DNA of 55,429 nt from Acidobacteriota bacterium (GCA_011523565.1 WTGL01000072.1:1914-57342); one strand, 5' to 3'. Positions 15,424-34,894 are shown, counted from the first letter of the stretch. Program-made: numbers and translations. The notes: generated from the sequence alone by a model not told the origin.

Positions 15424-15676
15424 TGGGGACATTCCTTTCCGATGGTTGAGTTGCAGGTCGGCTTGAGTGCTTCGGGCGCGAGTGTAGTGCAAGAAGCAGG
15501 CAGAGAGATAGATGCTCCCCTCAGCCCACAACGGGGGGCCTGAGGCCTCGGCCGGCGGTCCCCGAAACTCACCGATGTAGACTCGCAACTCGGGCGAGAT
15601 CCGGGCCGGTTGGCTGCCCCCTCGAAGAGACCTCACCAGGTCTTGCCCTCCGAAGCTCGAGAGCGAGGGGGCGGAC

Positions 15677-16525
15677 ATGAACAGGGACCAGATCGTCGAG
15701 GCCTTCAGACACCCGGAGCCCAGCGCCGGCAGCGTCGAACTCCAGCGGCGCATCGCGGAGACGATGACCGCCGCGGTCGTCGATGTCGCCGGCAGCCTGC
15801 CGGACTGCGACGAACGCAACGCCTTCATCGACTTCTGCCGGCGGGCCCAGTGGGCGGCCAATACGGCAGCCCTCAGAACGAAGGCCGGCGCATGGACCGA
15901 TCCGGCCGAAGCGCAGGAAGCGGACGTCCCGGCCGGCCCGGAACGCACCGTTTCCGAGGACGGAGTCGTCCGTCTCGGGCTGGCCGGCGCGTTCCACCGC
16001 GCGACCGGGGAGCGGCCCGACTTCGAAACCCGGCTCGACACGCCGCCCGGAACCTACCGGCGGATCGTGTTCCGCTTCCGTGTGCATCACGGCGGCTGGA
16101 ACCGTGTCCCGTCCCGCAACCAGAACCTGTTCTGGTTCGCCCGCGACCGGCACGCCGACCTGTTCGGTTTCGGCGTCGCCAGGGGGCCGGGCGGTCCGCC
16201 GCAGGTCTTCTACCGCACCGACTGGGGCGTCAAGCACACGGACAAGCAACGGGTGGTCGAGCGCTACCTGATGCAGGCCGGCGAGACCTACGACGTCCGC
16301 TTCGACTTCGACGCCGGCGGCGGCCGGATCGTCCTCGCGCTGGCCGACTCGAGCGGCGCCGAAGTGATGCGCGCCATCGGCAAGCCGAACATCGACCAGA
16401 TCCCGTTCAGCGCCGGCCAGAAGGTGGCGGTCGGCTTCGGCTTCCGCGGCGACTACGACAACGAGCCCGCGCAGCCCGGCTGGGTGTGGTCCGATCTGGT
16501 GGTGGAGCTGGAGCCCGCGGGCTAG
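15677..16525 (+). CDS. Hypothetical protein (beta-rich C-terminal half)
   Basis: 282-aa ORF with non-degenerate composition and G/C-rich third positions. No motif recognised. Confidence 0.55.
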   Translation: MNRDQIVEAFRHPEPSAGSVELQRRIAETMTAAVVDVAGSLPDCDERNAFIDFCRRAQWAANTAALRTKAGAWTDPAEAQEADVPAGPERTVSEDGVVRLGLAGAFHRATGERPDFETRLDTPPGTYRRIVFRFRVHHGGWNRVPSRNQNLFWFARDRHADLFGFGVARGPGGPPQVFYRTDWGVKHTDKQRVVERYLMQAGETYDVRFDFDAGGGRIVLALADSSGAEVMRAIGKPNIDQIPFSAGQKVAVGFGFRGDYDNEPAQPGWVWSDLVVELEPAG

Positions 16526-19392: not shown

Positions 19393-19519
19393 GATCCGTT
19401 CTCCTCCTTGAGCCGGCGATGGTCCACCGGATCCGGTTGCTCTACCTGACAAGGACGGATTCTCGGCCCGGCATCCGGGCTCGGGTGCGCCCGTGGCGGC
19501 ACGCTACGCTTGACCGTTG

Positions 19520-22072
19520 ATGGAAGCCGCCCGAAGAGCCTGGATTCCGGCCCTTGCAGCAGGGCTCCTCTTCGTCTTCACGGCCCCGCTGGCCGCGCAG
19601 GAGGAGAGGAAGGAGACCCGCAAGGAGAGGCGGGAGCGCCGGGCGGCGATGGAAGCGGCCGAAGAGGCGCTGCCGCTCGAGTTCAAGAAGTTCCTCGACG
19701 ACGTCCACTACCTGATCTCGGAGACGGAGCGCGAGGCGTTCCTCGCCGTCACGCAGGACTACCAGCGCCGGGCCTGGATCGAACGGTTCTGGCGCGTGCG
19801 CGACTCCTACCCCGACACGCCGCGCAACGAGTTCCGGGCCCGCTGGGAGGAGCGCCTGCTCTACGTCGAGCAGGAGTTCGAAGACAAGCGATCGGACCGC
19901 GCGTGGATGTTCCTGCTCAACGGGGAGCCTGACGGACGGCTCCAGTTCCAGTGCACGATGGTCACCTGGCCGATCGAGATCTGGTTCTACCGGCGCAGCG
20001 ACCAGGTGGGCCACGAGTTCTTCCTGCTGTTCTACCGCCGCGCCAACCAACCCATCTACGAACTCTGGCACCCCACCGACGGCCTCGACCGGCTGCTGGA
20101 CTACGGCGTCAGCGCGCAGGGGGTGGCCGGCGAAATCCAGGGCTGCAAGGACGGCGACATCGCCGCGTCCGCGATCAACTGGCTGCTGCGCTCGAACGGC
20201 ATGGAGTTCGCCATGCTGATGGGACGCCTGATCGAAACGCCGGAGGCGCCCTCGGCGGAGTGGACGCTCACCTTCGAGGCCTACACGACGGACGTGCCGG
20301 AAGACGCCGAGCCCCTGGACGCCAGCCTCGAGGTCCGCTACCCGGCGCGCTACCAGGCGCGGACCGTGGTCGAGGCCCTGGTCGAGATCGACCCGTCCTC
20401 CGCCCGCCCCGACACGGTGGGCGGGCAGTCGAGCTACAACTTCTTCCTCACCGGGGAAATCCTGCGCGAGGACGCGCTGTTCGAGAACTTCCGGTACAAG
20501 TTCGACCTGCCGCTGGGCAGCGCGGCGGGCATCGACGGCGCGCCGATCCTGCTCTCCTTCGAACGGCGGCTGCGGCCGGGCGACTACCGCCTCGTGCTGA
20601 AGATCGAGGATCTGAACGGCGCCCGCTTCGCCCGCCTGGAGCAGCCCCTCGAGGTGCCGACCCTCGAGGCGCCCGCCGCCCGCCAGCTCGACCCGGCGGT
20701 GCAGAAGATCATCGACCAGGCGGAGGCCGTGCTCTCGAGCGAGGTGCCCACCGTGCAGCTCCTGGAACCGCCCGGCGAACTCCAGACCGGCCTGGTGCGC
20801 TTCGACACTCTGGCGACCGGCGACATCGCCGAGATGCGCTTCTGGCTCGACGGCAACCAGGTTGCCCGCAAGCGCCGGGCGCCGTTCTCGGTCGAGCTCG
20901 ATCTCGGCTCGGTGCCCCGGGTCCACGTCCTGCGCGCCACCGCCCACGATGAGGACGGCGCCGAGGTCGCCTCGGACGAGATCTCCATGAACTCCGGGCG
21001 CAACCGCTTCGCCCTCCGTTTCGCCGAACCGCGCGAAGGCGTCAAGTACGAAGGCGAAGTCCAGGTCGAGATCGACCTCGCCGTCCCGGACACAAGCCTG
21101 GTCGAGCGCCTGGAGCTCTTCCTCAACGACGAGCCGGTCGCCACCCTCTACCAGGAGCCCTTCAGCCAGCGGGTCGAGCTTCCGCCCGGCGACGAGATCA
21201 CCTACCTGCGCGCCGCCGCCTTTCTGGTCGACGGCAACTCCACCGACGCGGTCGTCTACGTCAACGCGCCGGACTACCTGGAGATTCTCGACATCCAGTA
21301 CGTCGAGCTCTACGCGACCGCGCTGCACCGATCGGGCCGGCCGGTCGAGGACCTGCGCGCCGACCAGGTTGCGATCCTCGAGGACGGCGCGCCGCAGGAG
21401 ATCCTGCGCTTCCAGCGGGTCACCGACCTGCCGGTCCACGTCCAGGTGATGCTCGACGTCTCGGCCTCCATGGTCGACCGTCTGGCCACCGCCCGCGAGG
21501 CCGCTCTCGGCCTGTTCCAAAGCGCGATCACCCCTCGCGACCGGGCGGCCCTGGTCACCTTCAACGACCACCCGTACCTCGCCTCCGACTTCACCAACGA
21601 CACCGCCAAGCTCGCCGGGTCGCTCGCCGGTCTCAAGGCCGAACGCGGCACCGCCCTCTACGACGCGCTCGTCTTCGGCCTCTACTACCTGAACGGGATC
21701 AAGGGTCAGCGCGCGCTGGTGCTCCTCTCCGACGGCAAGGACGAGAGCAGCCGCTTCAGCTTCGACCAGACCCTCGAGTACGCCCAACGCTCCGGCGTCG
21801 CGATCTACGCGATCGGCCTCGGCCGCCAGGTGGGCGCCGCCAAGCGGGCACTCTCACGCCTCGCCACGCAGACCGGCGGCCGCTCCTTCTTCATCGGCAG
21901 CGTCGGCGAACTCGCCGGCGTCTACGACCAGATCCTCGGCGAGCTGCGCTCCCGCTACCTGATCACCTACCAGTCGACCAACACGAGCGGCAACCGCCGC
22001 TTCCGCGAAATCGAGGTCGACGCCAGGGTTCCGGGCGTGTCGATCCGTGCGCTGAAGGGGTACTACCCGTGA
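19520..22072 (+). CDS. GWxTD-like domain / Acidobacteria-type VWA (TIGR03436-like) secreted protein
   Basis: Signal peptide. N-terminal block ERFWRVRDSYPDTPRNEF...LLNGEPD. C-terminal VWA with MIDAS-like MLDVSASM...GTALYDAL...LLSDGKDESS. Confidence 0.75.
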   Translation: MEAARRAWIPALAAGLLFVFTAPLAAQEERKETRKERRERRAAMEAAEEALPLEFKKFLDDVHYLISETEREAFLAVTQDYQRRAWIERFWRVRDSYPDTPRNEFRARWEERLLYVEQEFEDKRSDRAWMFLLNGEPDGRLQFQCTMVTWPIEIWFYRRSDQVGHEFFLLFYRRANQPIYELWHPTDGLDRLLDYGVSAQGVAGEIQGCKDGDIAASAINWLLRSNGMEFAMLMGRLIETPEAPSAEWTLTFEAYTTDVPEDAEPLDASLEVRYPARYQARTVVEALVEIDPSSARPDTVGGQSSYNFFLTGEILREDALFENFRYKFDLPLGSAAGIDGAPILLSFERRLRPGDYRLVLKIEDLNGARFARLEQPLEVPTLEAPAARQLDPAVQKIIDQAEAVLSSEVPTVQLLEPPGELQTGLVRFDTLATGDIAEMRFWLDGNQVARKRRAPFSVELDLGSVPRVHVLRATAHDEDGAEVASDEISMNSGRNRFALRFAEPREGVKYEGEVQVEIDLAVPDTSLVERLELFLNDEPVATLYQEPFSQRVELPPGDEITYLRAAAFLVDGNSTDAVVYVNAPDYLEILDIQYVELYATALHRSGRPVEDLRADQVAILEDGAPQEILRFQRVTDLPVHVQVMLDVSASMVDRLATAREAALGLFQSAITPRDRAALVTFNDHPYLASDFTNDTAKLAGSLAGLKAERGTALYDALVFGLYYLNGIKGQRALVLLSDGKDESSRFSFDQTLEYAQRSGVAIYAIGLGRQVGAAKRALSRLATQTGGRSFFIGSVGELAGVYDQILGELRSRYLITYQSTNTSGNRRFREIEVDARVPGVSIRALKGYYP

Positions 22073-24600
22073 GATTCGCAGCAGCGTCCGCGCTTCTCGT
22101 CCTCACCCTCCTCGCCACCGCCGCCCTGGCCCAGGACGACGCCACCGCCACCCTCGACCGCCGCCATGCGGACTTCCTCGACACCGCCGACGCGATCCTC
22201 ACGGACACCGAGCGGCGCGTGTTCGGCGAACTCCGGCACGGCTACCAGCGCGACGCCTTCATCAAGCGCTTCTGGAGCGTCCGCGACCCCTATCCTGAAA
22301 CGCCGCAGAACGAGTTCCGGGAGCGCTTCGATCACATGCGGGAGCTGGCCGACGAGCGCTTCGGCGGCGCCCGGGGCGCCCGTTTCGAGGCGCTGCTCCT
22401 GCACGGGGAGCCGCAGCGCGCGTTCACCACCACGTGCCGGCTGCTGCGCACGCTTCACATCTGGCACTATTCGCACAGCCCGGTCGTGCGCGGCGAGTTC
22501 TACCTCGTCTTCCTGCGCCAAGGGGGCGACTACCGCTTGTGGACGGTCACCGACGGGCTCTCCGGCCTGCTCATCTTCACCGGTGCGGCGATCGACCGCG
22601 ATTCCCGGATCGAGGAGATCAACCGCGAGTGCGCGCGCGGCGGCGACGTGCTGACCGCGCTGGCACTGGCGCTCGACTGGGAGGCGATGGGCGGCGAACC
22701 CGAGCCCGGACGGGCCAACGACGAATGGGCGCTCGCCTTCCTCGACCGCAGCACGGAGGCGCCGGCCGGCGCGGCGCAGTTGCCGGCCGAGATCGCGATG
22801 CGGTACCCGGGACGCCGGGGCAGCCGCACCGTGGTCCAGGCGATCGTCGGCATCGATCCGGCCCGGCTGCCCGAGGCCGGGGACGGCCGCCGGCGCTTCC
22901 TGCTCGACGGCGAGGTCCTGCGGCAGGGCGAACTGTTCGAGAACTTCCGCTATCGCTTCGAGCCGCGCACCCGGTCTCCGGCCAGAGGCAGCGGAGCGAT
23001 TCCCCTCGTCATGCAGCGCTATCTGCGACCCGGGGCGTACCGGCTGGTGGTCAAGGTGCGCGACCAGGACAGTGGCAGCTACTTCGCCGCCAACGCGGAC
23101 ATCGACGTGCCGCTCGTGCCGCGGACACCGGCGGAAGCGGCCGCCCCGGGCCTCGCGGCCAACCCGACCAGCCCGGCCAGCCCGGCCAGCCCGGCGGACT
23201 GGCTGGCCGAGGCGAACGCGGCCGCACCCCTCGACACCGAGTCGGACGAGCACACCGTCCGCATCCTGCCGCTGCCCGAGCGGCTCCTCGTCGGCCGCGT
23301 CCGGATCGGCGCCGACGCCGAGGGCGCGGACATCCACCGGGTCGCGTTCTCGCTCAATGACCGGGAGCTGATCAGCAAGCGACGGCCGCCTTACCAGGTG
23401 GAGATCGACCTGGGTCCGACGCCGCGCATCCACACGCTGCAGGCGAACGCCTACGACCCGCAGGGAGGTGTGCTGGCAAGCGACGAAGTGCTGCTCAACT
23501 CCGGGCCGCACCGCTTCACCGTCCGTCTGACCTCGCCCCAACGCGGAGCTAACCACACGCGCAGCGTGCGCGCGGTCGCCGAAGTCGAAGCGCCGCGCCA
23601 CGAGCGGCTCGACCGGGTCGAGTTCTTCCTCAACGACACCCGCACCGCGACCCTCTACCAGCCGCCCTTCGAGCAGCCGATCCGGATCGATCCGGGCGAG
23701 CCCCTCTCCTACGTTCGCGTGGTGGCCCACCTGGAAACCGGCGCCTGGGCCGAGGATCTCGTCTTCGTCAACTCCCGCGACCGGGTCGAGTACGTCGACG
23801 TCGCCCTGATCGAGCTCTACGTCTCGGTCACTGACCGCTCCGGCGCGCCCCTGACCGGCCTGGCCGAGGGCGACTTTATGGTCTTCGTCGACGGCGAGGC
23901 GCAGCCCCTCCAGCGTTTCGACCAGGCCGCCAACCTGCCCGTCCACGCCGGCATCCTCTTCGACACCTCGACCTCCATGGTCGACCGCATCGACGCCGCC
24001 GAGGAGGCGGCGCTCCACTTCTTCGAACTCGTCCTCGGGCCGCAGGACCGCGCCTGTCTGATCACCTTCAACGACCGGCCCGAGCTCGCCGTCGGCTTCA
24101 CCGGCTCCAGGGAGACCCTGGCCGGCGGCCTGGCGGACCTGACCACGGAGGGCGAGACCGCCCTCTACGACAGCGTGCTCTACGCCCTCTACTACTTCGG
24201 CGGCCTGCGCGGCAAGCGGGCGCTGATCCTGCTCACCGACGGCGGCGACTCCAGCAGCGAGCACCACTTCGACGACGTGCTCGACTTCGCCCGGCGCAGC
24301 CAGGTGGCGATCTACAGCATCGGCATCGACATCGACCAGCGCGAACTCCTCGTTCGGGGCCGGCTGCAGCAGCTCTGCAACGAGACCGGGGGCCGGTGCT
24401 TCTTCATCACCGGAGCATCGGAGCTGAAGCGCGTCTACGAACGGATCGAAACCGAGGTCCGCTCCCAGTACCTGCTCGCGTTCGAGTCTCCCGAGGGCGA
24501 CCCCGACGCCTTCCGCAAGGTCGACGTGAAGCTCGCCAACCCCCGACCCCAGGGCCGCCGTGGCGTCAAGGTCCAGACGATCCCGGGCTACTTCCAGTGA
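22069..24600 (+). CDS. Paralogous GWxTD-like / VWA secreted protein
   Basis: Same architecture as the upstream gene (KRFWSVRDPYPETPQNEF...; LFDTSTSM...ETALYDSV...LLTDGGDSSS). The GTG start overlaps the upstream stop (GTGA). Confidence 0.75.
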   Translation: MRFAAASALLVLTLLATAALAQDDATATLDRRHADFLDTADAILTDTERRVFGELRHGYQRDAFIKRFWSVRDPYPETPQNEFRERFDHMRELADERFGGARGARFEALLLHGEPQRAFTTTCRLLRTLHIWHYSHSPVVRGEFYLVFLRQGGDYRLWTVTDGLSGLLIFTGAAIDRDSRIEEINRECARGGDVLTALALALDWEAMGGEPEPGRANDEWALAFLDRSTEAPAGAAQLPAEIAMRYPGRRGSRTVVQAIVGIDPARLPEAGDGRRRFLLDGEVLRQGELFENFRYRFEPRTRSPARGSGAIPLVMQRYLRPGAYRLVVKVRDQDSGSYFAANADIDVPLVPRTPAEAAAPGLAANPTSPASPASPADWLAEANAAAPLDTESDEHTVRILPLPERLLVGRVRIGADAEGADIHRVAFSLNDRELISKRRPPYQVEIDLGPTPRIHTLQANAYDPQGGVLASDEVLLNSGPHRFTVRLTSPQRGANHTRSVRAVAEVEAPRHERLDRVEFFLNDTRTATLYQPPFEQPIRIDPGEPLSYVRVVAHLETGAWAEDLVFVNSRDRVEYVDVALIELYVSVTDRSGAPLTGLAEGDFMVFVDGEAQPLQRFDQAANLPVHAGILFDTSTSMVDRIDAAEEAALHFFELVLGPQDRACLITFNDRPELAVGFTGSRETLAGGLADLTTEGETALYDSVLYALYYFGGLRGKRALILLTDGGDSSSEHHFDDVLDFARRSQVAIYSIGIDIDQRELLVRGRLQQLCNETGGRCFFITGASELKRVYERIETEVRSQYLLAFESPEGDPDAFRKVDVKLANPRPQGRRGVKVQTIPGYFQ

Positions 24601-25196
24601 GCGGGGCGCCCTCCGCCCCTGGCTCCCTGGTTCTCGCTTCCGCTTCCCCCCGCCGCCGCGAGCTGCTGGAATCGCTTGACCTCGACTTCGTGGTCCGCCC
24701 CGCCGCCGTCGACGAAACGCCGAACCCCGGCGAGCGCCCCCGAGACCTGGTGCGGCGGCTGGCGCGCGAGAAGGCGGAGGCCCAGGCCGAGGACGGCGAA
24801 TGGGTGCTCGCCGCCGACACGATCGTCGTCGAGAACGGCGACGTCCTCGGCAAACCCCGGGACCGCGACCAGGCCAGGGAGATGCTCCAGCGTCTCCAGG
24901 GCCGCTGGCACCTGGTCCTCACCGGCGTTGCCTTGAGGCCCCCCGACGGCGACACGCTGCACGCCGTCGAGAGCACCCGCGTCCTGTTCGCCGAACTCAC
25001 CCCTGAGCAGATCAACTGGTACGCCGCCACCGGCGAACCCGACGACAAGGCCGGCGCCTACGCCGTCCAGGGCCTGGGGGCGCTGTTCGTCGACGAGATC
25101 GACGGCAACTACAGCAACGTCGTGGGGTTGCCGCTGCCGACGGTGCGGCAGTTGTTCGAAGGGGCGGGGAGTGATGTGAGGGCGTTTCGCCGGTAG
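24597..25196 (+). CDS. maf: Maf-like nucleoside triphosphate pyrophosphatase
   Basis: LVLASASPRRRELLESLDLDF...AGAYAVQG. The GTG at 24597 overlaps the upstream stop. Confidence 0.85.
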   Translation: MSGAPSAPGSLVLASASPRRRELLESLDLDFVVRPAAVDETPNPGERPRDLVRRLAREKAEAQAEDGEWVLAADTIVVENGDVLGKPRDRDQAREMLQRLQGRWHLVLTGVALRPPDGDTLHAVESTRVLFAELTPEQINWYAATGEPDDKAGAYAVQGLGALFVDEIDGNYSNVVGLPLPTVRQLFEGAGSDVRAFRR

Positions 25197-25249
25197 GGGG
25201 AGAGGGACTCCAGTAGTATTGCGACACCTGAGGGGGTGTTCTCTTCGAG

Positions 25250-25992
25250 TTCACGAACCAAGCGACGGCCGGTCGCCAATCGAAAAGGAGATCCCGAATG
25301 ACCGAGAGGATCCTCGCAGAGGAAATCGCCTTCTACGAGAAGCACTTCGAGGAGTTTCGCCGGAAGTACGCCGGGCAGTACCTTCTCATTCACGGCGCTC
25401 AGTTGATCGGCGCGTACGACGACGAGTTGGAGGCCAACTACGACGGCTATCGGCAGGTTTGGAGGACGCGCACGGAGGGGCAAGGCTACCTGGTCCTGAA
25501 GGCGGGCGACCCGGCCATGCCGGTCGTGGAGATGCCCATCGTGACCAGGACTCGCTGGCCCTCCGATGCTGAGAATCCAACTTGAGGAGCGCTTCGGTGC
25601 CATCGTACAAGTCGAGATTCGACTACCGAGGGATCTGACACGAGAACAACACGTTCTTGGAAGGCACCCTGAGACTGTTCGGGGGGACGCCCTTGTCGAT
25701 ACCGGGTCCGATGTCACGGCCTTCGACCTTGACGCCGCAGTCCGAGCCGGATTGGAAAAGAGCGGTAGCGGAAAACTGACTACCGTCCTCGGCCACCACA
25801 GCGGGCAGGTTCCGCTACTGCTGGCTGAGGTCGAAATCACCGGATTCGGTACGTTCCCGGTGACAGGCGGCCGAGGCTTCGATCTTGCCCACCTGGACTA
25901 CGTCGCGGTCATCGGCCGCGACATCCTCCGGCACGGCATCCTGGTCTACAACGGCAGAGAAGGCTGGGCGACTCTGTCCCGCAATGGCGGCC
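25250..25992 (+). repeat. Direct-repeat copy 1 (~740 bp) covering the leader, the 95-aa gene and most of the protease gene
   Basis: Aligns by eye with 31033-31780 at roughly 80% nucleotide identity, starting at CA(C/T)GAACC..GCGACGGCCGGTCGCCAATCGAA and ending near CGCAATGG(C/T)GGC. Confidence 0.8.
25298..25585 (+). CDS. Small (95 aa) conserved hypothetical protein, copy 1; partner of the retropepsin-like protease. It possibly resembles DUF5678, but I cannot verify that.
   Basis: AAGGAG lies 8 nt upstream of the ATG. About 80% identical to the product of 31083-31370. Core motif KYAGQYLLIHGAQLIGAYDD. Confidence 0.75.
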   Translation: MTERILAEEIAFYEKHFEEFRRKYAGQYLLIHGAQLIGAYDDELEANYDGYRQVWRTRTEGQGYLVLKAGDPAMPVVEMPIVTRTRWPSDAENPT

Positions 25993-26015
25993 AGACAGAG
26001 GGGCGGTCGGTCTGA
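25566..26015 (+). CDS. Retropepsin-like (clan AA) aspartic protease, copy 1
   Basis: 149 aa. Active-site motif ALVDTGSDVT (D-T-G) and a C-terminal IIGRDILRH flap/dimer-like motif. The start overlaps the upstream gene by 20 nt. Confidence 0.8.
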   Translation: MLRIQLEERFGAIVQVEIRLPRDLTREQHVLGRHPETVRGDALVDTGSDVTAFDLDAAVRAGLEKSGSGKLTTVLGHHSGQVPLLLAEVEITGFGTFPVTGGRGFDLAHLDYVAVIGRDILRHGILVYNGREGWATLSRNGGQTEGRSV

Positions 26016-26190
26016 AGCCGGCGTGCGGGCGTTTCTACCGCCAGATTGCGTCTAGATCTCTATGAGGGGTCAAGACTCCCGTGAGTGCCTGCGCCGAGCA
26101 TCGGCGATCGTCCCTCTCGACATCCCGCTGTTAGCATCACTACTGACGACAGGCTTGCCTCAACGGATTCCACCGCCCTACGGAGAGCAC

Positions 26191-26715
26191 ATGACAACCG
26201 GAGAACAGGTCAGTGAGTCGCGGCGAAACGAGGCGTGGTTCGACTATCTTGAGGCGGTTCGGCTGGAGCGCTACTACTACAAGCTCTACGACCGCTACCA
26301 GGTGTGGAGGCAGGCAATCCGCCTCCTCATCTTTCTGTCTGTCTCGGGCAACGTCGTCGGCGCCTTGCAAGGCGCGCCCTCCTGGGTCATCTGGAGCGTG
26401 AGCACGGTTGCCGCGATCCTGCTGGCCGTCGACTTCCTGGGGGACCATGCCCGAAAGGCCGCCAGTTCCTTCGCCATCAGCCAGGCTTGCGCGGCGCTCT
26501 GCAACGACTACAGCCGTTTGTGGCAACAGATCAATGAGCGGGAGATCGACGAACTGCAGGTCGTCTCCAGACTCGCCGACCTGGCCGAGACCGTACGGAG
26601 AACGACCGGCCGAGCCGGCGATGTGGACCTGCGAACCAACGAGCGGCTGAACGAGCGGTCCACCGTGGAAGCCAACCAGCTCCTGGAGAGCCGCTATGTC
26701 GTCCAGGAAGCATAG
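26191..26715 (+). CDS. Two-TM membrane protein with a SLATT-like architecture (helix, TM hairpin, helical tail)
   Basis: The ATG at 26191 follows GGAGAG; an alternative ATG lies at 26062. TM1 is AIRLLIFLSVSGNVVGAL and TM2 is WVIWSVSTVAAILLAVDFL. They are flanked by an aromatic-rich helix (WFDYLEAVRLERYYYKLYDRY) and a helical tail. Confidence 0.6.
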   Translation: MTTGEQVSESRRNEAWFDYLEAVRLERYYYKLYDRYQVWRQAIRLLIFLSVSGNVVGALQGAPSWVIWSVSTVAAILLAVDFLGDHARKAASSFAISQACAALCNDYSRLWQQINEREIDELQVVSRLADLAETVRRTTGRAGDVDLRTNERLNERSTVEANQLLESRYVVQEA

Positions 26716-26830
26716 TGACGCCGGCAAGCGTCGCAGCGAGATCCGAACCGCTTCCTCCGGAAAGCCGCCGAGGCCGCCGAAGATCAAACCCGTGAAGCCG
26801 CCGCCACGGCCTTCGCCCAAGAAGAAGTAG
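26696..26830 (+). CDS. Possible 44-aa Lys/Pro/Arg-rich peptide ORF, below the ORF-track size cut-off
   Basis: Translation MSSRKHSDAGKRRSEIRTASSGKPPRPPKIKPVKPPPRPSPKKK. Overlaps the 2-TM gene end by 20 nt. Third positions are mostly G/C. No other support. Confidence 0.25.
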   Translation: MSSRKHSDAGKRRSEIRTASSGKPPRPPKIKPVKPPPRPSPKKK

Positions 26831-26867
26831 GGCGCCATCGTTTCCGCTGGGTGTGCGGACCTTCTGA

Positions 26868-29800
26868 TCAGAACTCCATCCGCTGCCACCGGGCGGCTTC
26901 CGAGTCCCAGTACGTCGCGTTCCGGTCGTACGACTTGGCGATTCGCTCCAACACTTGGCTAACGAAGGGAGACCGGAAGGCAAGAGGCCTCGCCCAGCCC
27001 CGGCACCTGGCCGCGAGTTCTCGTTCCTGACCACCGCCTTCTCCACGCCAGACGGCGCCACGAGAATTCAGGACCCCCACAAGAAAACCGCTCGCCGATG
27101 CCTCGGTCGCTACTGCCTCCATCGCCTCGCAGACAGCAGAGCACGGCCATGAGCCATCGCAGTCTGACGGACTCTTGGAGAGTAGCTGGCCGATCCACTC
27201 GTCTACGGCGTTGGCTCGACCATGCCGACTACCTTGTCGCCTCGCTTCGGAAACCCAGCGCTGGAGAGCTTCAACGTCGATCTCGCCGCCTCCAGACTTG
27301 GCGCCAGGGATTCGGGCGGCCTTGCCAAGCACGGAGAAAGCCCTTTCACCCAAGAACGCTCTCTTGTCCGGGCTCGATACGGGCCAGCCATCCGGATCCT
27401 CGCGCCCGTCATTGCGCTTGCACAGAAGGGCCACAAGCCAGACGAAGTAGCTCGGGTCTTCGGAGACTCGACGCTCAAGGTTGGGGATGCCGTAGTCGTC
27501 GTGTTCCAGCTGGTCGAAGAAGGCGAACTCGTAGTCCGCCATCTCCTGCGGAGTTACTCCGCTTCTCTTACTCAGGGATTCGATCGCCCGGCAAACGTCG
27601 TAGGCGCGAATCTGGATACTGGAATCCGGCTCCGGGCCGGCAACGATCCCCTCCAGCAGGCGCCTCAACCGGAGTGTCTCGACCGCACCCCAATCAAGGC
27701 GAAGGGCAAAGAGTGCGGCGCGGGGCCGACCCGCAGCGAGGAGACGGTCGACCAGGTCCGTGAGTTCGTCCCCGGGCACCCGGACGAGGGGATAGGGCCG
27801 GACGTCGCGCCAGTACTTCTCCTGGATGTCACCGCTCTGTCGGCAGACGAGGCGCCACGTCTCCGGACTGAACGGCGCGCAGCAAAGGAGGCGAGCGATC
27901 TGTTTCCGTCGCAGCTCCGCGGTAAGGCCTTGCAGTAGCTCCGTTCGCTCGTCCTCATTTGCCTGGCTGAGAAAGCCTCGAAGGAACCCGTCCACCTGGC
28001 CTTCCTCCAGGTCAAGGCCGGTGGGGAGGTCACGCGACAGGCAGCCGCGAACGACTTCGGCACGTTCGCGCCGGTCGACCGCGCATGGCCAAACGAAGGC
28101 GCCCACCTTACCGGCAGAGTTGCTGGAGGGAAGAAGCGACAGGGCGCCCTTAAGGCCTCGGTCCGTCCAGATCTCCGCCATCGCTTCAGCCCGCCGCCTC
28201 TCAATGGCCTTCGTCCGCTCGGACAAGTCCATCCCGGCATCATGGTCGCCAGGCCATTCGCGAATGAAGTGCTCGGCGAAGAGCCACGCATGGCGCCTCG
28301 CCGGATCGCGCGGCGCGAGGCGGTCGTACATGATCTTCGCCCGCTGCCTCAAGGTGGGCTCGACCGCGGACGCGGACCTGGCGCTGCTGAAGGGCCGGAC
28401 GCGCTCCCGCAGGGCGGCCCGCTGCGCCTCGTCCGGGCGCTCTTCCAGCCACTCGTCGACGAGACTCCAGACCCGAGCCTGCTTCTCGTCCGGCATGTCG
28501 CCGAGAAGATCGATCACGTCCCCCAGTCGCTCGGCATCAAGCTCCTGTGGCCACTTCAGGAGCAACTCGAGCGATTTGCGCTCGAACTCAAGGCGGTCCT
28601 GGACGGAGATCGGCTCGCCCGCGTCCGCCGCATCGCTCCGCCACCGCGGCCGATAGCTGTAGTCGCCTGTCCTTGGACTGCTACGGAGCTGCTCCAGGCA
28701 GACTTGCCAACCCACTTCCGGGACGCGTCTGCAAAGCAGGTCAAGCGCCCCGAACCGATCATCGAGGGATGCGGCTGTCTGCGGCATCCAAGATCGGAAG
28801 ATCGCCTTCAGGCTGTTGATCGGCCGATTGTCCCAGTTGTCGTCTATCGGCGTCTTGGAGAGCTGTCCCAGGATCAGAACGACCCGAGACAGATTCTGCG
28901 GGTTCCATGCCAGACACTCCAGCGCCCAGAGAAGACTGGTTCGCGGACAGTCCCCGAAGGGACCCGGAGGCGCCGGCTTCAGGAGTTCGAACAGGGCCGA
29001 ATCGTCCTGCCTCAGGTCCCTCTCAAGCAGCCGAAGGAAGGCGTCCGGGGCCGCTTCCGCAAGCCTCGGAAGGTCGCGGTCGTAGGACATCAGCGCCTCA
29101 ACCGTCAACGGCGCCTCCGCTCCGTCCGGCGCCAGCAGCCGCCTGACGAGATCCGAGACCTGGGCTTCATGATCAATCCCAAGCCGCGCCTGGAATAGGC
29201 CGTTTCCGTGCACGGCCAGCAGCACCAGCGTTTCACAAACCCCGGTCCGGATCGCGTCCGAGTGATCGCGCAGTTTGCCGTGGATAGCCGCGGCCCATCT
29301 CTCGCCCAAGGGCAGATCCAGAGCGGGATCGATCTCGGACAGGACGTGCTCGGCGCGAAGGAGGAACTCGTCAAGATCATCCCGCGTCATGTGCCCTGCG
29401 ACAGCAAACAACGCATCGATCTGCGAGGCCACCCCCCTGTACTCGCCAACGGACCACACCGGACTGTCGTTCCACGCCAGCAGGCCCTGCAAGTCTTGGT
29501 CGACTTCGCGAAACGGGCGATCGGCAAGAGTCGACAGAAGCGCGCGATCCGCCCCGGAACCGGTCTGCCACGCCCCAACGAGAGCCATCGGCACCAGCCT
29601 GCGCGCGATCTCAGGCTCCTCAGCCCATCGAGGCGTCCCAAGTGCGGCGTTCCCGGAGAGACGACGCCGGAGGATTGTCGGAGAGCGGCCCGACTCCAGG
29701 GCCAACCGACCAACCTCCGCTCGGCTGAACCCCATCGTCTTGAGGGACTCCTCGAACGTCCCGTAGCCCACCAGGCCGAGTTCGATGTCCGGCTTCGGGT

Positions 29801-30959
29801 CTACCGGGTTGCGCGGACGAACTACAATGGCTGGACGCCTCCCGTGCGCGAGTTCACGTTCCGTCTCGCGATCGCTGGCGATCGGAATGAACGACGAGGT
29901 TGCACCTGCCAGGGTTCTCAGCGTCTGCGCCGAGTTCACGACAACGGCATGATCGGAGCTATCGGTGCCAGCTTCCTTGAACAGGCAGGCGAGGAAAGCA
30001 AGGGCCTCCGCAGTCGAATCCGCCGTCACAACGAATGAGCGCTCTCGATCTGGCCTGTTGAGCCAGGAGGCAAAGTCAGTCCGGTGCGTGCGAACCGCGG
30101 GTCCGAACATGCCTTCTGTCAGCCGGGGCTCCGTAACCCCGGCCCACCGCTCCCAGGCCCGGTCGAGAGTCATGCAATCTTCGACCGACGGGAGACCAAG
30201 CTGCTCTGCGAGCCAGACTTGGCCCTCGATGGACTCCTCCAGCCACTGCTCCAGATCGCTCGCGTCTAGAGCCCTCACGTCCTTCCAGTGACCCTCTTTC
30301 CTGCGTTCCTTCGCCCACTGGTTCTTCCTCGGCCAATTGCGCGACGAGACGAACACGAACGTCATCCCGTCTCTCTCCTCAGCCGGAAGAGCCAGTCGAT
30401 TCCTGAAGTCGGACGTGGCCTTGCTCGCGGGATCCTTGGCCGTACTCAACTCCCAGCCCGACCGGCCCTCCGGGATCCAGGGGGTCGCCGCCGCGGCCTC
30501 TACTCGACCGTCCCAACCCCGCCGCTGACCTTGGCCGTATCCAGGAAAGTCGACTTCGCGCAGTTCCCGGCCCGCTGACCGAACCAACCTCCTGACGAGG
30601 ACCGGCAGGCGGCTCCGGGCCTTCTCGTCGTGGTCTGCCCAGGAATCGATCTGCGACGCCTCGATTGTGAGAAACTCCGGCACATAGCTCCGAACCGCGA
30701 TCGTCCGCTCTTCCTCGCGACGCCGAGTACTCTCTGACTCGGCCTGGACGCGGAAAAGGTCGTCCAAATTGGCCCCGAACGCGGTCTTCAGGCGAAGGGC
30801 CATCTGCTGCGACAGTGAGGCTCTGCCGTTGAGGAGGTTCGACAGAGCGACCCTGCTGACGTTCAATCTCTCGGCGGCGGCCTTGACCGTCATCCCGCTG
30901 GGAATGACCCGTTTCCTGATGTAGTCGCCAACGCCCCCCGCCTCGTCTGGTGTCCGCAC
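26868..30959 (-). CDS. 1363-aa protein with an N-terminal HigA/VapI-type XRE helix-turn-helix fused to ~1290 aa of unassigned, mostly helical sequence
   Basis: N-terminus GDYIRKRVIPSGMTVKAAAERLNVSRVALSNLLNGRASLSQQMALRLKTAFGANLDDLFRVQ. I found no Walker A, HExxH or other catalytic motif. Many A/T-ending codons compared with flanking core genes. GTG start at 30959. Confidence 0.8.
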   Translation of the reverse strand: MRTPDEAGGVGDYIRKRVIPSGMTVKAAAERLNVSRVALSNLLNGRASLSQQMALRLKTAFGANLDDLFRVQAESESTRRREEERTIAVRSYVPEFLTIEASQIDSWADHDEKARSRLPVLVRRLVRSAGRELREVDFPGYGQGQRRGWDGRVEAAAATPWIPEGRSGWELSTAKDPASKATSDFRNRLALPAEERDGMTFVFVSSRNWPRKNQWAKERRKEGHWKDVRALDASDLEQWLEESIEGQVWLAEQLGLPSVEDCMTLDRAWERWAGVTEPRLTEGMFGPAVRTHRTDFASWLNRPDRERSFVVTADSTAEALAFLACLFKEAGTDSSDHAVVVNSAQTLRTLAGATSSFIPIASDRETERELAHGRRPAIVVRPRNPVDPKPDIELGLVGYGTFEESLKTMGFSRAEVGRLALESGRSPTILRRRLSGNAALGTPRWAEEPEIARRLVPMALVGAWQTGSGADRALLSTLADRPFREVDQDLQGLLAWNDSPVWSVGEYRGVASQIDALFAVAGHMTRDDLDEFLLRAEHVLSEIDPALDLPLGERWAAAIHGKLRDHSDAIRTGVCETLVLLAVHGNGLFQARLGIDHEAQVSDLVRRLLAPDGAEAPLTVEALMSYDRDLPRLAEAAPDAFLRLLERDLRQDDSALFELLKPAPPGPFGDCPRTSLLWALECLAWNPQNLSRVVLILGQLSKTPIDDNWDNRPINSLKAIFRSWMPQTAASLDDRFGALDLLCRRVPEVGWQVCLEQLRSSPRTGDYSYRPRWRSDAADAGEPISVQDRLEFERKSLELLLKWPQELDAERLGDVIDLLGDMPDEKQARVWSLVDEWLEERPDEAQRAALRERVRPFSSARSASAVEPTLRQRAKIMYDRLAPRDPARRHAWLFAEHFIREWPGDHDAGMDLSERTKAIERRRAEAMAEIWTDRGLKGALSLLPSSNSAGKVGAFVWPCAVDRRERAEVVRGCLSRDLPTGLDLEEGQVDGFLRGFLSQANEDERTELLQGLTAELRRKQIARLLCCAPFSPETWRLVCRQSGDIQEKYWRDVRPYPLVRVPGDELTDLVDRLLAAGRPRAALFALRLDWGAVETLRLRRLLEGIVAGPEPDSSIQIRAYDVCRAIESLSKRSGVTPQEMADYEFAFFDQLEHDDYGIPNLERRVSEDPSYFVWLVALLCKRNDGREDPDGWPVSSPDKRAFLGERAFSVLGKAARIPGAKSGGGEIDVEALQRWVSEARRQGSRHGRANAVDEWIGQLLSKSPSDCDGSWPCSAVCEAMEAVATEASASGFLVGVLNSRGAVWRGEGGGQERELAARCRGWARPLAFRSPFVSQVLERIAKSYDRNATYWDSEAARWQRMEF

Positions 30960-30968
30960 GATCAGATG

Positions 30969-30997
30969 ATCGTAAAGCGACGCTTATCACTTGTCAA
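30969..30997 (-). promoter_or_regulatory. Sigma70-like promoter for the 1363-aa gene
   Basis: Minus strand reads TTGACA-17 nt-TACGAT. The -10 box ends 9 nt before the GTG, which implies a leaderless or near-leaderless mRNA. The spacer contains the palindrome AAGCG-N-CGCTT (30975-30985). Confidence 0.45.
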
Positions 30998-31032
30998 CGG
31001 TCGCTGTGGTAACAGTCAACACAAACGGAGGG

Positions 31033-31780
31033 GATCATGAACCCGGCGACGGCCGGTCGCCAATCGAACAGGGAGATCCCGAATGACCGAGAAGGCACTC
31101 GCCGAAGAGATCGCTCTCTACGAAGAGCACTTTGAGGAGTACCGCCGGAAGTACGCCGGCCGGTACCTCCTGATACACGGCGCCAAGTTGATCGGCGCCT
31201 ACGACGACGAGTTGGCGGCCCACTACGACGGTTACCGGCGGGTGTGGCGAACGAGGACGGAAGAGCGTGGCTACCTCGTGCTCAAGGCCGGCGAGCCGGC
31301 CGTTCCAGTCATCGCGATGCCCATCGTGACGAGGACGCTCCGGCCGTCCGATGCCGAGAATCCGACTTAAGGAGAACTTCGGCGCCATCGTCCAGGTCGA
31401 GATTCGACTTCCACCGGATCTGAGCCAGGAGAAGCAGGTTCTCGGAATCCACTCCGAGCTGGTCGCCGGAGAAGCTCTGATCGACACAGGGGCGGATGTC
31501 ACAGCGTTCGACCTGAAGGCAGCAGAACGAGCGGGCTTGGTACGCAGTGGCACCGGAAGACTCAGCACGGTTCTTGGTCAGCATGACAGCGAAACGCTTC
31601 TCTTTCTCGGCGAGATCGAGATAGCCAGCTTCGGCGCCTTCACCGTCCCCAACGGGCGCGGCTTCGACCTCTCCCACCTGAGCTACGTCGCGATCATCGG
31701 CCGCGACATCCTCCGGCACGGAGTCCTGGTCTACAACGGCAAGGAGGGGTGGGCGAGTCTGTCTCGCAATGGTGGCTCCA
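31033..31780 (+). repeat. Direct-repeat copy 2 of the small-protein/protease module
   Basis: See copy 1 at 25250-25992. Confidence 0.8.
31083..31370 (+). CDS. Small (95 aa) conserved hypothetical protein, copy 2
   Basis: MTEKALAEEIALYEEHFEEYRRKYAGRYLLIHGAKLIGAYDD... Same length and ~80% identity to copy 1. AGGGAG RBS. Confidence 0.75.
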   Translation: MTEKALAEEIALYEEHFEEYRRKYAGRYLLIHGAKLIGAYDDELAAHYDGYRRVWRTRTEERGYLVLKAGEPAVPVIAMPIVTRTLRPSDAENPT

Positions 31781-31806
31781 AGGAGCGAGCGCCGGCTCCC
31801 CCCTAA
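31351..31806 (+). CDS. Retropepsin-like (clan AA) aspartic protease, copy 2
   Basis: ALIDTGADVT active-site motif and IIGRDILRH. Has the same 20-nt overlap with its upstream partner. Its 3' end overlaps the apgM stop by 4 nt (convergent). Confidence 0.8.
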   Translation: MPRIRLKENFGAIVQVEIRLPPDLSQEKQVLGIHSELVAGEALIDTGADVTAFDLKAAERAGLVRSGTGRLSTVLGQHDSETLLFLGEIEIASFGAFTVPNGRGFDLSHLSYVAIIGRDILRHGVLVYNGKEGWASLSRNGGSKERAPAPP

Positions 31807-33050
31807 GCCCCGAACTTCCCGAGCTTCCCCGCATTCGCCAGCAGCAGCCCCATCAACTCGCTTGACGGGATCGTGCCGACCGCGCCGCGGATCGCCTCGG
31901 CCTCGGTGAACCGGGCGCAGTCGTCCACGAAGCAGTACTCCGACGACAGCAGCAGCGGCACGGGGTGCCAACTGTGGGCCTTCATCGGCGCCGGGGTCGA
32001 GTGGTCGCCGGTGATCGCGAGCACGTCGGGGCCCAGGTCCAGCAGGCGGGGCAGCAGGGCGTCGACTTCCTCGATCACGCCGACCTTGGCGGCGAGGTCG
32101 CCGTCCTCGCCGGCCATGTCGGTGCCCTTGACGTGGAGGAAGAAGTAGTCGAAGTCCGCCCAGCACTCCTCAAGCCGGTCGAGCACCTGCCCGAAGGACT
32201 TGCCGCAATCGACCACGTCCATGCCGCAGGCCCTGGCCACGCCGCGGTAGAGCGGATACCCGGCCAGGGCGGCGGCGCGCAAACGGTAGAGCTCGCCAAT
32301 GCCCGACAGCGACGGCAGCCTGGAGAAGCCGCGGAGCAGGAAGGTGTTCGCGCGCTCTTCGGACCGCAGCTCCCGCTGCAGCACCTCGAGGACCGGCGCG
32401 ATCCGGCGGGCTGTCTCCCGGGCCGCATCGCCGCCGATCGCCTCGATCGGCAGCGGCGGAACGCCAAGCTGCTGCGGGTCCGTGTCGGCAAGCGCCGAAT
32501 CCAGCGGCGCCGTCCCAGCCCGGGCCCGGAACAGCAGCACGAACCGATACGCCTCGCCGGCATGGACCTCGACCTCGACGCGGTCGCCGAGCACCCCGCC
32601 GTCCGCTGCTATCCGCCGGGCGAGCAGCCCGCAGATCCGCCGGCCCTCCGCGGTCGGGATGCGCCCAGCGCGCCGGTCCAGCAGCAGGCCGGCCCCGTCG
32701 ACGGTGGCGAAGTTGCCCCGGGCCACCACCGTGTCGGGCGGAACGTCCAGGCCGAGGCCGAGCGCCTCCAGCACGCCGCGGCCGACGTCCGCATCCGGCG
32801 AACCGGGGTCGTAACCGAACAGGGCCAGGTGACCCGGCCCGCTACCCGGCGTGATCCCGGTCCCCGCCGGCACGAGGCGGCCCAGCGCCGACCGTGCCGC
32901 GAGCTCGTCCAGGTTCGGCGTGCGCGCCTCCTCGAGCGCCGTCCGCGGCTGGTCGGCGGTTCGCAGGTCGCCGACGCCGTCGAGCACCAGCAGGACGATC
33001 CGGCGCTCGTTCCCCTGCGCGAGGCGCGTCAACAACTCCTGACGCGTCAT
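31803..33050 (-). CDS. apgM: Cofactor-independent phosphoglycerate mutase, archaeal-type (ApgM/metalloenzyme superfamily)
   Basis: The ATG at 33050 gives MTRQELL.... Motifs VLLVLDGVGD, TPNLDELA and ITGDHSTP...HSWHPVP. The upstream part of the 505-aa track ORF is an Arg-rich extension. Confidence 0.8.
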   Translation of the reverse strand: MTRQELLTRLAQGNERRIVLLVLDGVGDLRTADQPRTALEEARTPNLDELAARSALGRLVPAGTGITPGSGPGHLALFGYDPGSPDADVGRGVLEALGLGLDVPPDTVVARGNFATVDGAGLLLDRRAGRIPTAEGRRICGLLARRIAADGGVLGDRVEVEVHAGEAYRFVLLFRARAGTAPLDSALADTDPQQLGVPPLPIEAIGGDAARETARRIAPVLEVLQRELRSEERANTFLLRGFSRLPSLSGIGELYRLRAAALAGYPLYRGVARACGMDVVDCGKSFGQVLDRLEECWADFDYFFLHVKGTDMAGEDGDLAAKVGVIEEVDALLPRLLDLGPDVLAITGDHSTPAPMKAHSWHPVPLLLSSEYCFVDDCARFTEAEAIRGAVGTIPSSELMGLLLANAGKLGKFGA

Positions 33051-33061
33051 GGCGGCACCGC

Positions 33062-33478
33062 CTACGCCACGAAGTAGGCCGACGCCCGGATCTGCACCCG
33101 CGCGCGAGGCTGGAAGCCGCCGCCGTGAAGCCGCAGCGCCGTGTCGCCGGACAGCACGGGCAGGACGATCCAGCCGTCGAACGTCTCGCCCCGCTGGTAC
33201 GGCGAGACAACCGGTTCGAGTTCGGCGAGCCGCGTCCAGTGGCCGTTCTCCGCGAAGTTCGCCCGCAGTTCGAGGTACGCCTTGTCGAGGTCGATGTTCT
33301 TGCCTTCCCGCGGGTGCCACACCGAGACGACGAAGCGCATCTCGTCGAAGCGGTGCGTGTCCAGGCGCTCGCCCTCACCGTGCGTCAACGGGTAGACGAA
33401 CGCCCCCTTGTTGTCGGTCGCGTAGATCTCCGGCGTGGCCGTGAAGGCCACGTGGAGCGGCTGTACGTTCCGGCTCAA
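33062..33478 (-). CDS. Hypothetical protein (138 aa)
   Basis: Non-degenerate composition. Tightly packed between the macro-domain gene and apgM. No motif recognised. Confidence 0.55.
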   Translation of the reverse strand: MSRNVQPLHVAFTATPEIYATDNKGAFVYPLTHGEGERLDTHRFDEMRFVVSVWHPREGKNIDLDKAYLELRANFAENGHWTRLAELEPVVSPYQRGETFDGWIVLPVLSGDTALRLHGGGFQPRARVQIRASAYFVA

Positions 33479-34372: not shown

Positions 34373-34894
34373 CTAACCGGTCAGAGGTTCCCACGGACTG
34401 ATGACATCGACGCCCAGACTTCGGAAGTGGGCGACGTTCCTGGTCGCAACCGTCAGGTGGTGCACAGCCGCCGTTCCCGCGATGAGCGCATCCGCGAGAC
34501 CCGCGGTCCGGCCTGCGCGGCGCGCCTGGGCGCGCAGCGTCGCCGCATGCTGGGCCACACGGCGCCCGACACCGAGAAGCCGGTTGTCGTGCTCGGTAAC
34601 GATGGCGGACAGCACCTTCCGGAGTTCGCGCCGGCGACACCCCGTGGCAAGCAACCGCAACCCGAAGTGGAGTTCGTGAACGACGATGGTCGAAAGCCAA
34701 AGGTCGTCTCTGGAGTTCAGAAACGCCACGACCTGGAGTTCCGGCGCCGACTTCGCCAACTCCGAGACGACGTTCAGGCGCGCCTTCGCCTCAGCGACTG
34801 TCCAGGCTCTTGGCGAATCGGTCTGCTCTGCGTTCACGGGTGGTTCCTCTCGTCGAACATGGTCCAACATAGACCATGTATGGACTGCGGTCAA
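34373..34894 (-). CDS. PIN-domain (VapC/FitB-like) protein, probably degenerate
   Basis: The body NVVSELAKSAPELQVVAFLNSRDDLWLSTIVVHELHFG...LADALIAGTA...VATRNVAHF is VapC-like. The first acidic residue (LDTN) is replaced by an antitoxin-like segment WTVAEAKARL, and the last Asp of the TxNxxDF motif is His. Confidence 0.6.
   Translation of the reverse strand: MTAVHTWSMLDHVRREEPPVNAEQTDSPRAWTVAEAKARLNVVSELAKSAPELQVVAFLNSRDDLWLSTIVVHELHFGLRLLATGCRRRELRKVLSAIVTEHDNRLLGVGRRVAQHAATLRAQARRAGRTAGLADALIAGTAAVHHLTVATRNVAHFRSLGVDVISPWEPLTG

Follow-up and report, generated by a model that had tools for sequence, protein, structure and literature searches.

The maf-apgM interval of an Acidobacteriota bacterium: accessory genes for a giant HTH protein, a small-protein/retropepsin cassette and a SLATT-like membrane protein

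Genes and repeats of the maf-apgM interval

The window analysed in this work is a stretch of 55,429 nt from an Acidobacteriota bacterium (GCA_011523565.1 WTGL01000072.1:1914-57342), and the subject of the analysis is the interval between its genes maf and apgM (25250-31806, counted from the first letter of the window). Two diverged direct repeats, each encoding a small protein (sp95) and a retropepsin-like aspartic protease (pr), enclose a gene for a membrane protein with two transmembrane helices (2-TM; tm174) and a convergently oriented gene for a 1363-aa protein with an N-terminal helix-turn-helix (HTH) domain, hereafter the giant gene (Table 1). The reading that we favour, with about as much confidence as doubt, is that this Candidatus Multivorans-like interval holds three separable accessory modules, namely the giant gene, the sp95-protease cassette and tm174, and not one system.

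A sequence-only reading of this stretch had proposed two direct repeats of about 80% identity with three genes between them. The repeats are present, with a slightly lower identity: a global alignment of copy A (25250-25992) with copy B gives 76% (567/744, one gap), distributed over the 48-nt leader (88%), the open reading frame (ORF) of the 95-aa protein (81%) and the protease ORF (70%, falling to 65% in its middle part), and the longest exact match between the copies is 28 nt. Each copy does encode, as had been stated, a 95-aa protein and a D-T-G protease of about 150 aa (149 and 151 aa, respectively), with a 20-nt overlap between the two ORFs. Two of the three genes proposed between the repeats stand, i.e. 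those for the 2-TM protein and for the 1363-aa HTH protein; the third, an overlapping basic peptide, was dropped, as it is absent from public gene calls on this DNA and overlapping ORFs of similar size are abundant all through this high-GC sequence. The anticipated contrast in composition is also evident: the GC content is 0.61-0.65 inside the block vs 0.69-0.73 outside, and GC at third codon positions (GC3) ranges from 0.68 to 0.83 in the six internal genes and from 0.905 to 0.938 in six flank genes (maf, apgM, two genes with GWxTD and VWA domains, and two more).

Table 1. Features of the maf-apgM interval (window coordinates; residue numbers refer to the giant protein)
Feature	Position	Strand	Remarks
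Direct repeat, copy A	~25250-26000	+	homology to orthologues in other genomes begins at 25227
5' leader of cassette copy A	25227-25297	+	hairpin GCGAC-GGCCG-GTCGC at 25262-25276; GGAGAT ribosome-binding site
sp95A, small protein (95 aa)	25298-25585	+	putative antitoxin-like partner
prA, retropepsin-like aspartic protease (149 aa)	25566-26015	+	putative cassette toxin
tm174, two-helix membrane hairpin (2-TM, 174 aa)	26191-26715	+	remote SLATT_4-like
Terminator-like hairpin 3' of giant gene	26790-26809	-	consensus scan only
Giant gene (1363-aa HTH protein)	26868-30959	-	convergent to tm174
HigA/XRE HTH (aa 10-87)	30699-30932	-	
Alpha/beta domain (aa 100-260)	30180-30662	-	
STAND-like module without P-loop (aa ~296-600)	29160-30074	-	
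HEAT-like alpha-solenoid (aa 604-1363)	26871-29150	-	
Giant-gene promoter and putative operator	30969-30997	-	palindrome 30973-30986
Direct repeat, copy B	~31035-31785	+	offset from copy A 5785 nt
5' leader of cassette copy B	31035-31082	+	hairpin 31046-31060; 12-nt deletion vs copy A and orthologues
sp95B, second small-protein copy (95 aa)	31083-31370	+	divergent from giant gene, 123 nt from giant start
prB, second retropepsin-like protease (151 aa)	31351-31806	+	stop overlaps apgM stop

Variation of the interval among relatives

At the DNA level, the flanks share 85-90% identity with chromosomes of Candidatus Multivorans (Acidobacteriota, Thermoanaerobaculia), and the island DNA is identical in the public assemblies of the same population (L032-L035). 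Among the Thermoanaerobaculia genomes compared, the same interval is occupied by maf, tm and apgM in L043; by maf, tm, sp95, a protease remnant and apgM in L044; by tm, a giant gene in four fragments and sp95 in L047; by maf, the giant gene, an sp95-protease pair and apgM, without tm, in L004; by tm, the giant gene and a single sp95-protease copy, with the apgM block inverted, in L003; by the giant gene, sp95, a 29-aa protease remnant and tm, in a rearranged order, in L001; and by a giant gene lacking its first 130 codons, with both cassette genes truncated, in L002. The position of copy A, between maf and tm174, is empty in all relatives examined. As the content of the interval is mixed or decayed from one relative to the next, the maf-apgM interval is a variable hotspot, whose place is conserved while its tenants have been gained, lost and decayed independently. 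The block is thus accessory, foreign in composition and variable among related genomes, in agreement with the sequence-only reading.

The further proposal of that reading, that all the genes between maf and apgM make up one acquired multi-gene system of defence or abortive infection, in which a DNA-binding sensor, proteases and a membrane effector would act jointly, is largely refuted by these comparisons, and we regard it as very improbable. It is true that all the parts share a lowered GC and GC3, that they are adjacent here and in the identical population variants, and that components of these kinds (protease, SLATT-like 2-TM protein, STAND-like protein) are known from conflict systems. However, relatives carry the parts separately at this site; the giant gene is found without the other parts at 24 of 31 genome loci, and the cassette without the giant gene or tm174 at 59 metagenome loci, most of which are short stretches; and the homologues of tm174, found only at this site, include one that stands there alone.

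The giant protein: family and predicted structure

The giant protein represents a family of at least 2462 clusters with a uniform length of ~1355 aa, whose members are named 'HigA antidote', 'HigA family antitoxin', 'HTH protein' or regulator in the databases on the basis of their first ~80 residues. Searches of Pfam, NCBIfam and PDB with the full protein recognised the N-terminal HTH alone (Pfam HTH_3; HigA TIGR02607, 42.7 bits; PDB 2icp and 4mcx), while a match over the whole length was obtained to phrog_18693 (PHROG 18693, function unknown; E 5e-114). Loci from the genome collection span seven or more phyla at 45-50% identity, and the groups with homologues include Gemmatimonadota, Nitrospirota, Binatia, Latescibacterota, Planctomycetota and Proteobacteria. 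Plasmids also carry homologues (60, of which 29 are conjugative), among them Shewanella baltica OS195 pS19502 and Rhizobium plasmids. No housekeeping family was matched by the large protein, and its homologues lie in contexts of defence genes or mobile elements, both in line with the sequence-only reading.

AlphaFold2 models of the two halves of the protein (predicted local distance difference test, pLDDT, 87) delineate the domains listed in Table 1. The domain that follows the HTH comprises an alpha-beta-beta-beta-alpha-beta core with invariant residues D150, E170 and K180, of which D150 and E170 are situated at the strands expected for the PD-(D/E)xK fold and K180 on the next helix, not within an ExK motif. 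A single BFVD match was obtained, to a protein that bears the name 'Restriction endonuclease' (153 columns, root mean square deviation 4.1, E 0.039). From the topology, the invariant residues and this match, we tentatively regard this domain as nuclease-like, of a PD-(D/E)xK-like kind.

The next module is modelled with alpha/beta, helical and winged-helix parts, and its core sheet has only four strands. The Foldseek search with the N-terminal half of the protein reported, as best PDB matches, Avs4 (E 9.4e-6), Apaf-1 (1.3e-4), Avs5 (3.6e-4) and CED-4 (2.6e-3), followed by AAA+ clamp loaders. A regular-expression search for the Walker A motif GxxxxGK[ST] found none conserved in 25 family members; the structurally equivalent beta1-alpha1 junction is a 3-residue loop with the invariant residues A313-D314-S315 (A-D-S). 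The remainder of the protein is modelled as an all-alpha solenoid (pLDDT 87) and matches the HEAT-type solenoids of importin, CRM1 and CAND1 (Foldseek); it is the more divergent half, with 46-48% identity vs 55-61% for the N-terminal one. The PADLOC profile PD-Lambda-4_A gave weak matches in 11 of the 25 members, at aa ~589-739; PD-Lambda-4 is now named Avs8, a STAND sensor of a capsid protein. A Pfam match to VMAP-M15 (E 0.23, 1/25 members) was discarded as a chance hit.

Promoter and putative operator of the giant gene

The sole sigma-70-like site in the region 25100-31900 is TTGACA-17-TACGAT, located 9 nt upstream of the GTG start codon of the giant gene. Since the -10 box ends 9 nt before the GTG, the giant mRNA would be nearly leaderless. 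The ATG chosen by gene callers, 22 codons downstream of the GTG, would remove the conserved residues G11 and P20.

The palindrome TAAGCG-T-CGCTTTA in the promoter spacer occurs nowhere else in the window. Close relatives exhibit CGTAAAGCG-N-CGCTTTACG at the promoter of the giant gene, distant homologues, including the one on the Shewanella plasmid, exhibit TTGTAT-TGTGTAGCG(N)CGCTACAC-GATACAAT, and related palindromes are found upstream of giant homologues across phyla. Of 38 upstream regions, 12 contain AGCG-N1-5-CGCT (0.04 expected) and 34 the half-site motif (0.086 expected), the half-site and looser motif counts having been defined after the sequences were viewed; a strict regular expression of promoter plus palindrome is matched at 6 of 38 loci. 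The HigA/XRE HTH most likely binds the spacer palindrome and would thereby repress its own gene. As the AT-rich promoter-operator accompanies the gene across phyla, it marks what appears to be a self-contained mobile unit.

The combination of an N-terminal XRE/HigA HTH with a conserved palindrome in the gene's own promoter also suits a different role, that of a signal-sensing transcription regulator comparable to the STAND regulators of the MalT/AfsR type, in which the HTH would be the output and defence would play no part. These regulators likewise combine a STAND-like core with a repeat sensor, and the database names call the giant protein an HTH regulator. We consider this distinctly unlikely, because no adjacent target operon is conserved and the only conserved DNA site is in the gene's own promoter, because the invariant alpha/beta domain with D150, E170 and K180 would be left without an explanation, and because the contexts of the family are defence islands, plasmids and integrative elements.

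Genomic neighborhood of the giant gene

Analysis of the genomic neighborhood found no family-wide conserved neighbour gene around the giant homologues. A type I restriction-modification (R-M) system is present within 10 kb at 14 of 39 giant-gene loci, the R-M systems belonging to two unrelated lineages and lying in two orientations relative to the giant gene, and in one clade the giant gene immediately precedes hsdR in the same orientation, 35-170 nt away. The other 25 loci, the window included, have no R-M system nearby. At individual loci the giant gene is accompanied by AAA_21 ATPases and a large methyltransferase, in a hotspot with otherwise varying genes (L038 and L136), by a KAP NTPase, Mrr and an integrase (L040), by Mrr/NA-iREase1 (L135), by Fic (L137), or by AbiE together with UvrD-like and AAA genes (L131). 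The surroundings of the giant gene thus bear the signature of defence islands and mobile elements, as an association only, and the recurrence beside type I R-M systems and defence genes points, on the evidence of neighbourhood, to a role against phages or plasmids.

In the related genomes L038 (giant gene at 7001-11101) and L136 (8001-12101), the gene occupies one and the same site, flanked by an Opp permease gene on one side and a Peptidase_M48-DUF898 pair on the other. Upstream of the giant gene, one of them has a helicase gene, an AAA_21 gene and a 392-aa gene, and the other has genes for an 854-aa, a 205-aa, an AAA_21 and a 919-aa methyltransferase protein. This site is a second variable hotspot.

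The R-M systems within 10 kb, with hsdR directly downstream in one clade, and the 29 conjugative plasmids among the 60 plasmid records would also accommodate a giant protein that is an accessory or regulator of R-M systems, or a factor of plasmid maintenance or exclusion, instead of an independent sensor-effector. Against this we note that R-M systems are missing from the vicinity of the 25 loci mentioned above and that two unrelated R-M lineages in differing orientations fit co-location in islands better than a fixed partnership, which makes this alternative quite improbable.

The sp95-protease cassette

The protease family comprises 298 representative clusters (E<=1e-3). D45-T46-G47 and G117-R118-D119 are invariant in an alignment of 50 sequences and intact in prB. 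Two relatives, P0173 and P0192, score above the Pfam gathering thresholds (gag-asp_proteas, Asp_protease_2); the two copies from the window remain below them (19.6-23 bits). By these motifs, prA and prB are predicted to be retropepsin-like (clan AA) aspartic proteases. An sp95-like ORF of ~80-95 aa is located directly upstream of the protease, abutting or overlapping its start, at 59 of the 80 metagenome loci found with a 12-sequence alignment, of which 62 have room upstream of the protease. No conserved third gene was detected at the cassette loci from metagenomes, whose host GC ranges from 34 to 65%. sp95-protease is therefore an autonomous two-gene cassette, mobile among unrelated contexts. 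The window sp95 has no Pfam match; three of five of its relatives give weak matches to DUF5678 (PF18929; E 0.002-0.15, at most 18.4 bits vs a gathering score of 23.2). A C-terminal segment of sp95 is conserved and reads IPAL-LGIL in relatives.

sp95 is intact where the protease is truncated (L001 and L044) or carries D-T-S (L004). A small gene placed first, overlapping ORFs, unrelated contexts and this asymmetric decay together suggest a toxin-antitoxin-like cassette, in which the protease would be the toxic part and sp95 its inhibitor. In L004, a Ca. Multivorans genome (~9175-9600, minus strand), the D-T-S replaces D-T-G in an otherwise intact ORF and may inactivate the protease.

The two copies in the window do not result from a recent duplication. 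sp95A and sp95B share 81% aa identity, and each has 78-83% identity to its orthologues from other species; for prA and prB the values are 66% to one another and 73-74% to the L003 protease (74% for prB). The copies are thus no closer to each other than to orthologues from other species, and the number of synonymous substitutions per site (dS) between them is 0.8-1.0, vs 0.42 for maf of this genome and L003. The ratio of nonsynonymous to synonymous substitutions (dN/dS) between the copies, 0.13 in sp95 and 0.23 in the protease, indicates purifying selection maintaining both; the second copy is old and still under such selection. The excision of ~5.8 kb by recombination between the repeats, which the sequence-only reading had envisaged, did not receive support, as the expected product was not seen in any relative examined.

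A leader of ~75 nt is conserved upstream of sp95 in L001, L003, L004, L030, L046, L048 and L047, and consists, in this order, of GGAGGGGGTGTTCTCTTCGAGTTCACGAACC, a GGCGAC/GTCGCC hairpin, with a conserved stem and a loop of variable length (3-14 nt), and a ribosome-binding site. RNAalifold predicted the hairpin and, in addition, a pairing that would mask the ribosome-binding site, with no compensatory changes; an Rfam scan of 24900-32000 reported no match. A scan for a sigma-70 promoter of sp95B found none, and overlapping divergent -35 boxes between sp95B and the giant gene are a speculation.

The divergent arrangement of cassette and giant gene seen in the window recurs in L001, L003, L004, L030, L046, L048 and L049. 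L030, L046, L048 and L049 represent a second chromosomal site, beside DUF885 and a type I R-M system, where the cassette is likewise divergently upstream of a giant gene whose product is only 53% identical to that of the window. This opens the possibility that the cassette and the giant protein work as partners in this lineage, i.e. that they form a three-gene system in which the protease processes the sensor or is controlled by it, or in which the HTH controls the cassette from the shared intergenic region. In line with such a partnership, the intergenic blocks are conserved at the two sites despite the 53% identity of the giant proteins, and adjacency is found further afield in Holophagales (L031, an sp95 pseudogene downstream of the giant gene) and Binatia (L010, a cassette 2.3 kb upstream), while several other sp95 homologues are found on contigs equal in size to contigs with giant homologues. 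Nonetheless, the giant gene is intact in L001, where the protease is reduced to 29 aa, and accompanies a DTS protease in L004; it has no cassette in L042 or at 24 further loci; elsewhere the cassette occurs autonomously; and copy A has neither the palindrome nor the shared intergenic region. We therefore regard a three-gene system as unlikely. Under the three-module interpretation, the recurrence may reflect a lineage-specific partnership or co-mobilisation of cassette and giant gene, with one cassette copy travelling with the giant gene in this lineage, perhaps as a stabiliser.

tm174

tm174 represents a small family of 17 clusters only, all at least 67% identical. The NCBIfam model SLATT_4 (NF033632) was matched by all 12 homologues scanned (best E 1.3e-7), all of them below the cutoff of 55 bits, as is the window protein with 22.7 bits; no Pfam match was found for tm174. 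A longer version of the 2-TM protein, with a 217-aa start, was rejected, as all homologues support the 174-aa start. The homologues whose sites were examined all come from the maf-apgM interval: in L043, L044, L047, L003 and the window the gene immediately follows maf, and in L001 it is found on the side of apgM; in L043 it is alone between maf and apgM. No partner that generates or senses nucleotide signals was found beside it, the neighbours being maf, apgM, the cassette and the giant gene. These observations suggest that tm174 is a weakly SLATT-like resident of this site, restricted to the lineage and with no demonstrable link to the other two modules.

Flanking genes and population variants

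Positions 19517-24600 of the window encode tandem paralogous proteins with GWxTD and VWA domains (843 and 851 aa, ~37% identical), whose genes overlap by 4 nt. Both are located upstream of maf in all relatives and are flank genes outside the island. The apgM block of L003 (reverse-complement 15075-16782) is inverted with respect to window 31800-33477, L002 and L004.

In the population assembly L034, at ~15820, 57 nt are deleted in the 3' part of maf (window 25017-25074), just upstream of copy A. In window 34373-34775 (minus strand), 250 nt are missing in comparison with L032 and L035 of the same population, which comprise the greater part of a PhdYeFM antitoxin gene and the beginning of its PIN toxin gene; a 5'-truncated PIN ORF remains in the window and the junction is at 34775. 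Two apparent population variants were rejected: the 'truncated prA' of L035 is due to a different start in the gene call, the DNA being identical, and the 'missing Phd' of L033 is due to a run of N.

Relation to described systems

A literature search found no description of the families treated here. The giant protein appears to share with the Avs proteins (Avs4, Avs5, Avs8) the general plan of a single large protein, in which an effector-like domain at the N-terminus is followed by a NOD-like core and, at the C-terminus, by a long repeat sensor; Avs4, Apaf-1 and Avs5 are its best structural matches, the weak match to PD-Lambda-4_A recurs in the family, and both are found in the context of defence islands. 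It differs from them in the absence of Walker A from the 25 family members, in the additional N-terminal HTH of HigA type with an operator of its own, and in a sensor that is HEAT-like and not TPR. A PDB profile search revealed no significant sequence similarity between the giant protein and solved STAND proteins.

The closest precedent for its inactive STAND-like module is iSTAND of the MoxR-vWA ternary conflict systems, where an inactive STAND serves as a sensing or scaffolding part (Kaur et al. 2020, PMC7159879). iSTAND proteins are, however, always accompanied by MoxR and vWA partners, neither of which was found in the Pfam-annotated neighbourhoods of the giant gene that were examined; the two VWA-domain genes beside maf are conserved flank genes and have no MoxR with them. 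DSR2 (PMC11263360) has a SIR2 head joined to a HEAT-repeat sensor, with no NTPase. By analogy, the giant solenoid would sense a phage protein and activate the N-terminal enzyme without nucleotide hydrolysis. The two differ in the head (SIR2 vs the alpha/beta domain) and in the HTH, which DSR2 does not have, and the parallel is one of analogy and not of shown homology.

With HigA the giant protein shares the match over its first ~80 residues and an apparent autoregulation. HigA genes are autoregulated from a palindromic operator, and the giant gene would be controlled in the same way. However, the giant protein has ~13 times the size of HigA, and a HigB-like toxin gene is neither adjacent to it nor conserved beside it.

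The cassette resembles type II toxin-antitoxin systems in having two small overlapping genes, the smaller one first, unrelated contexts and a second gene that decays, and it differs from them in that sp95 has no recognisable DNA-binding domain. We found no toxin-antitoxin family with a retropepsin-like protease toxin described in the literature. tm174, with its two-helix hairpin and its consistent match to SLATT_4, resembles the 2-TM effector domains of the SLATT type (Burroughs et al. 2015, as cited in PMC7159879). It differs from them in scoring far under the cutoff, in the absence of an adjacent nucleotide-signal enzyme, and in standing alone between housekeeping genes in L043.

Conclusions

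The functions proposed here for all three modules are predictions. According to our model, the giant gene would be a self-contained, horizontally mobile single-gene unit, repressed by the HTH of its own product. The giant protein would act as a one-protein sensor-effector of the Avs/NLR type, the STAND-like part being an oligomerisation module that has lost its P-loop. The HEAT-like solenoid, the faster-evolving part, may bind a protein of the invader and thereby switch on the N-terminal domain. It is possible, if doubtful, that two further statements both hold, namely that the giant family is a hitherto undescribed but widespread class of P-loop-less, NLR/Avs-like, single-protein immune sensors that do without nucleotide hydrolysis, in the manner of an iSTAND standing by itself, with an HTH-operator circuit and a cryptic nuclease-like head, and that sp95-retropepsin is the first module of toxin-antitoxin type with a retropepsin toxin.

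Several points weigh against this interpretation. Searches of PDB and Pfam, with profiles or members, gave nothing for the putative nuclease domain (aa 95-275), and its lysine is not at the canonical ExK position. The STAND assignment is based on Foldseek matches with template modeling scores (TM-scores) of only 0.20-0.38 and on weak matches of hidden Markov models; since neither Walker A nor an obvious Walker B is found in the family, the giant protein is not an NTPase of the STAND kind. The half-site motif was, as mentioned, defined with the sequences in view, and the only line of evidence for a defence role is gene neighbourhood. With respect to the independence of the modules, the recurrence of the cassette beside the giant gene in the lineage makes functional coupling possible, the absence of the giant gene from metagenome loci of the cassette is only weakly informative because most of these loci are short, and tm174, which has a low GC even where it is alone, may be an old acquisition and not a true resident.

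For genome scans, the interval is a caution: adjacent genes with a low GC in common, enclosed by repeats, suggested a single system, and the relatives showed three independent tenants. The retropepsin cassette is plausibly a new type of toxin-antitoxin system. To our knowledge, the roles of stand-alone bacterial retropepsin-like proteins are mostly unknown; a protease-toxin cassette, if confirmed, would provide a function for them. The most interesting part is the giant family, which is widespread and unstudied and adds an HTH-operator circuit of its own to an Avs-like plan that is devoid of a P-loop. If the prediction is true, a family of at least 2,400 clusters, present on many plasmids and in many phyla of soil and sediment, would be added as candidate defence genes, and if the giant protein is an immune sensor, the NLR/Avs body plan would work without an NTPase switch.

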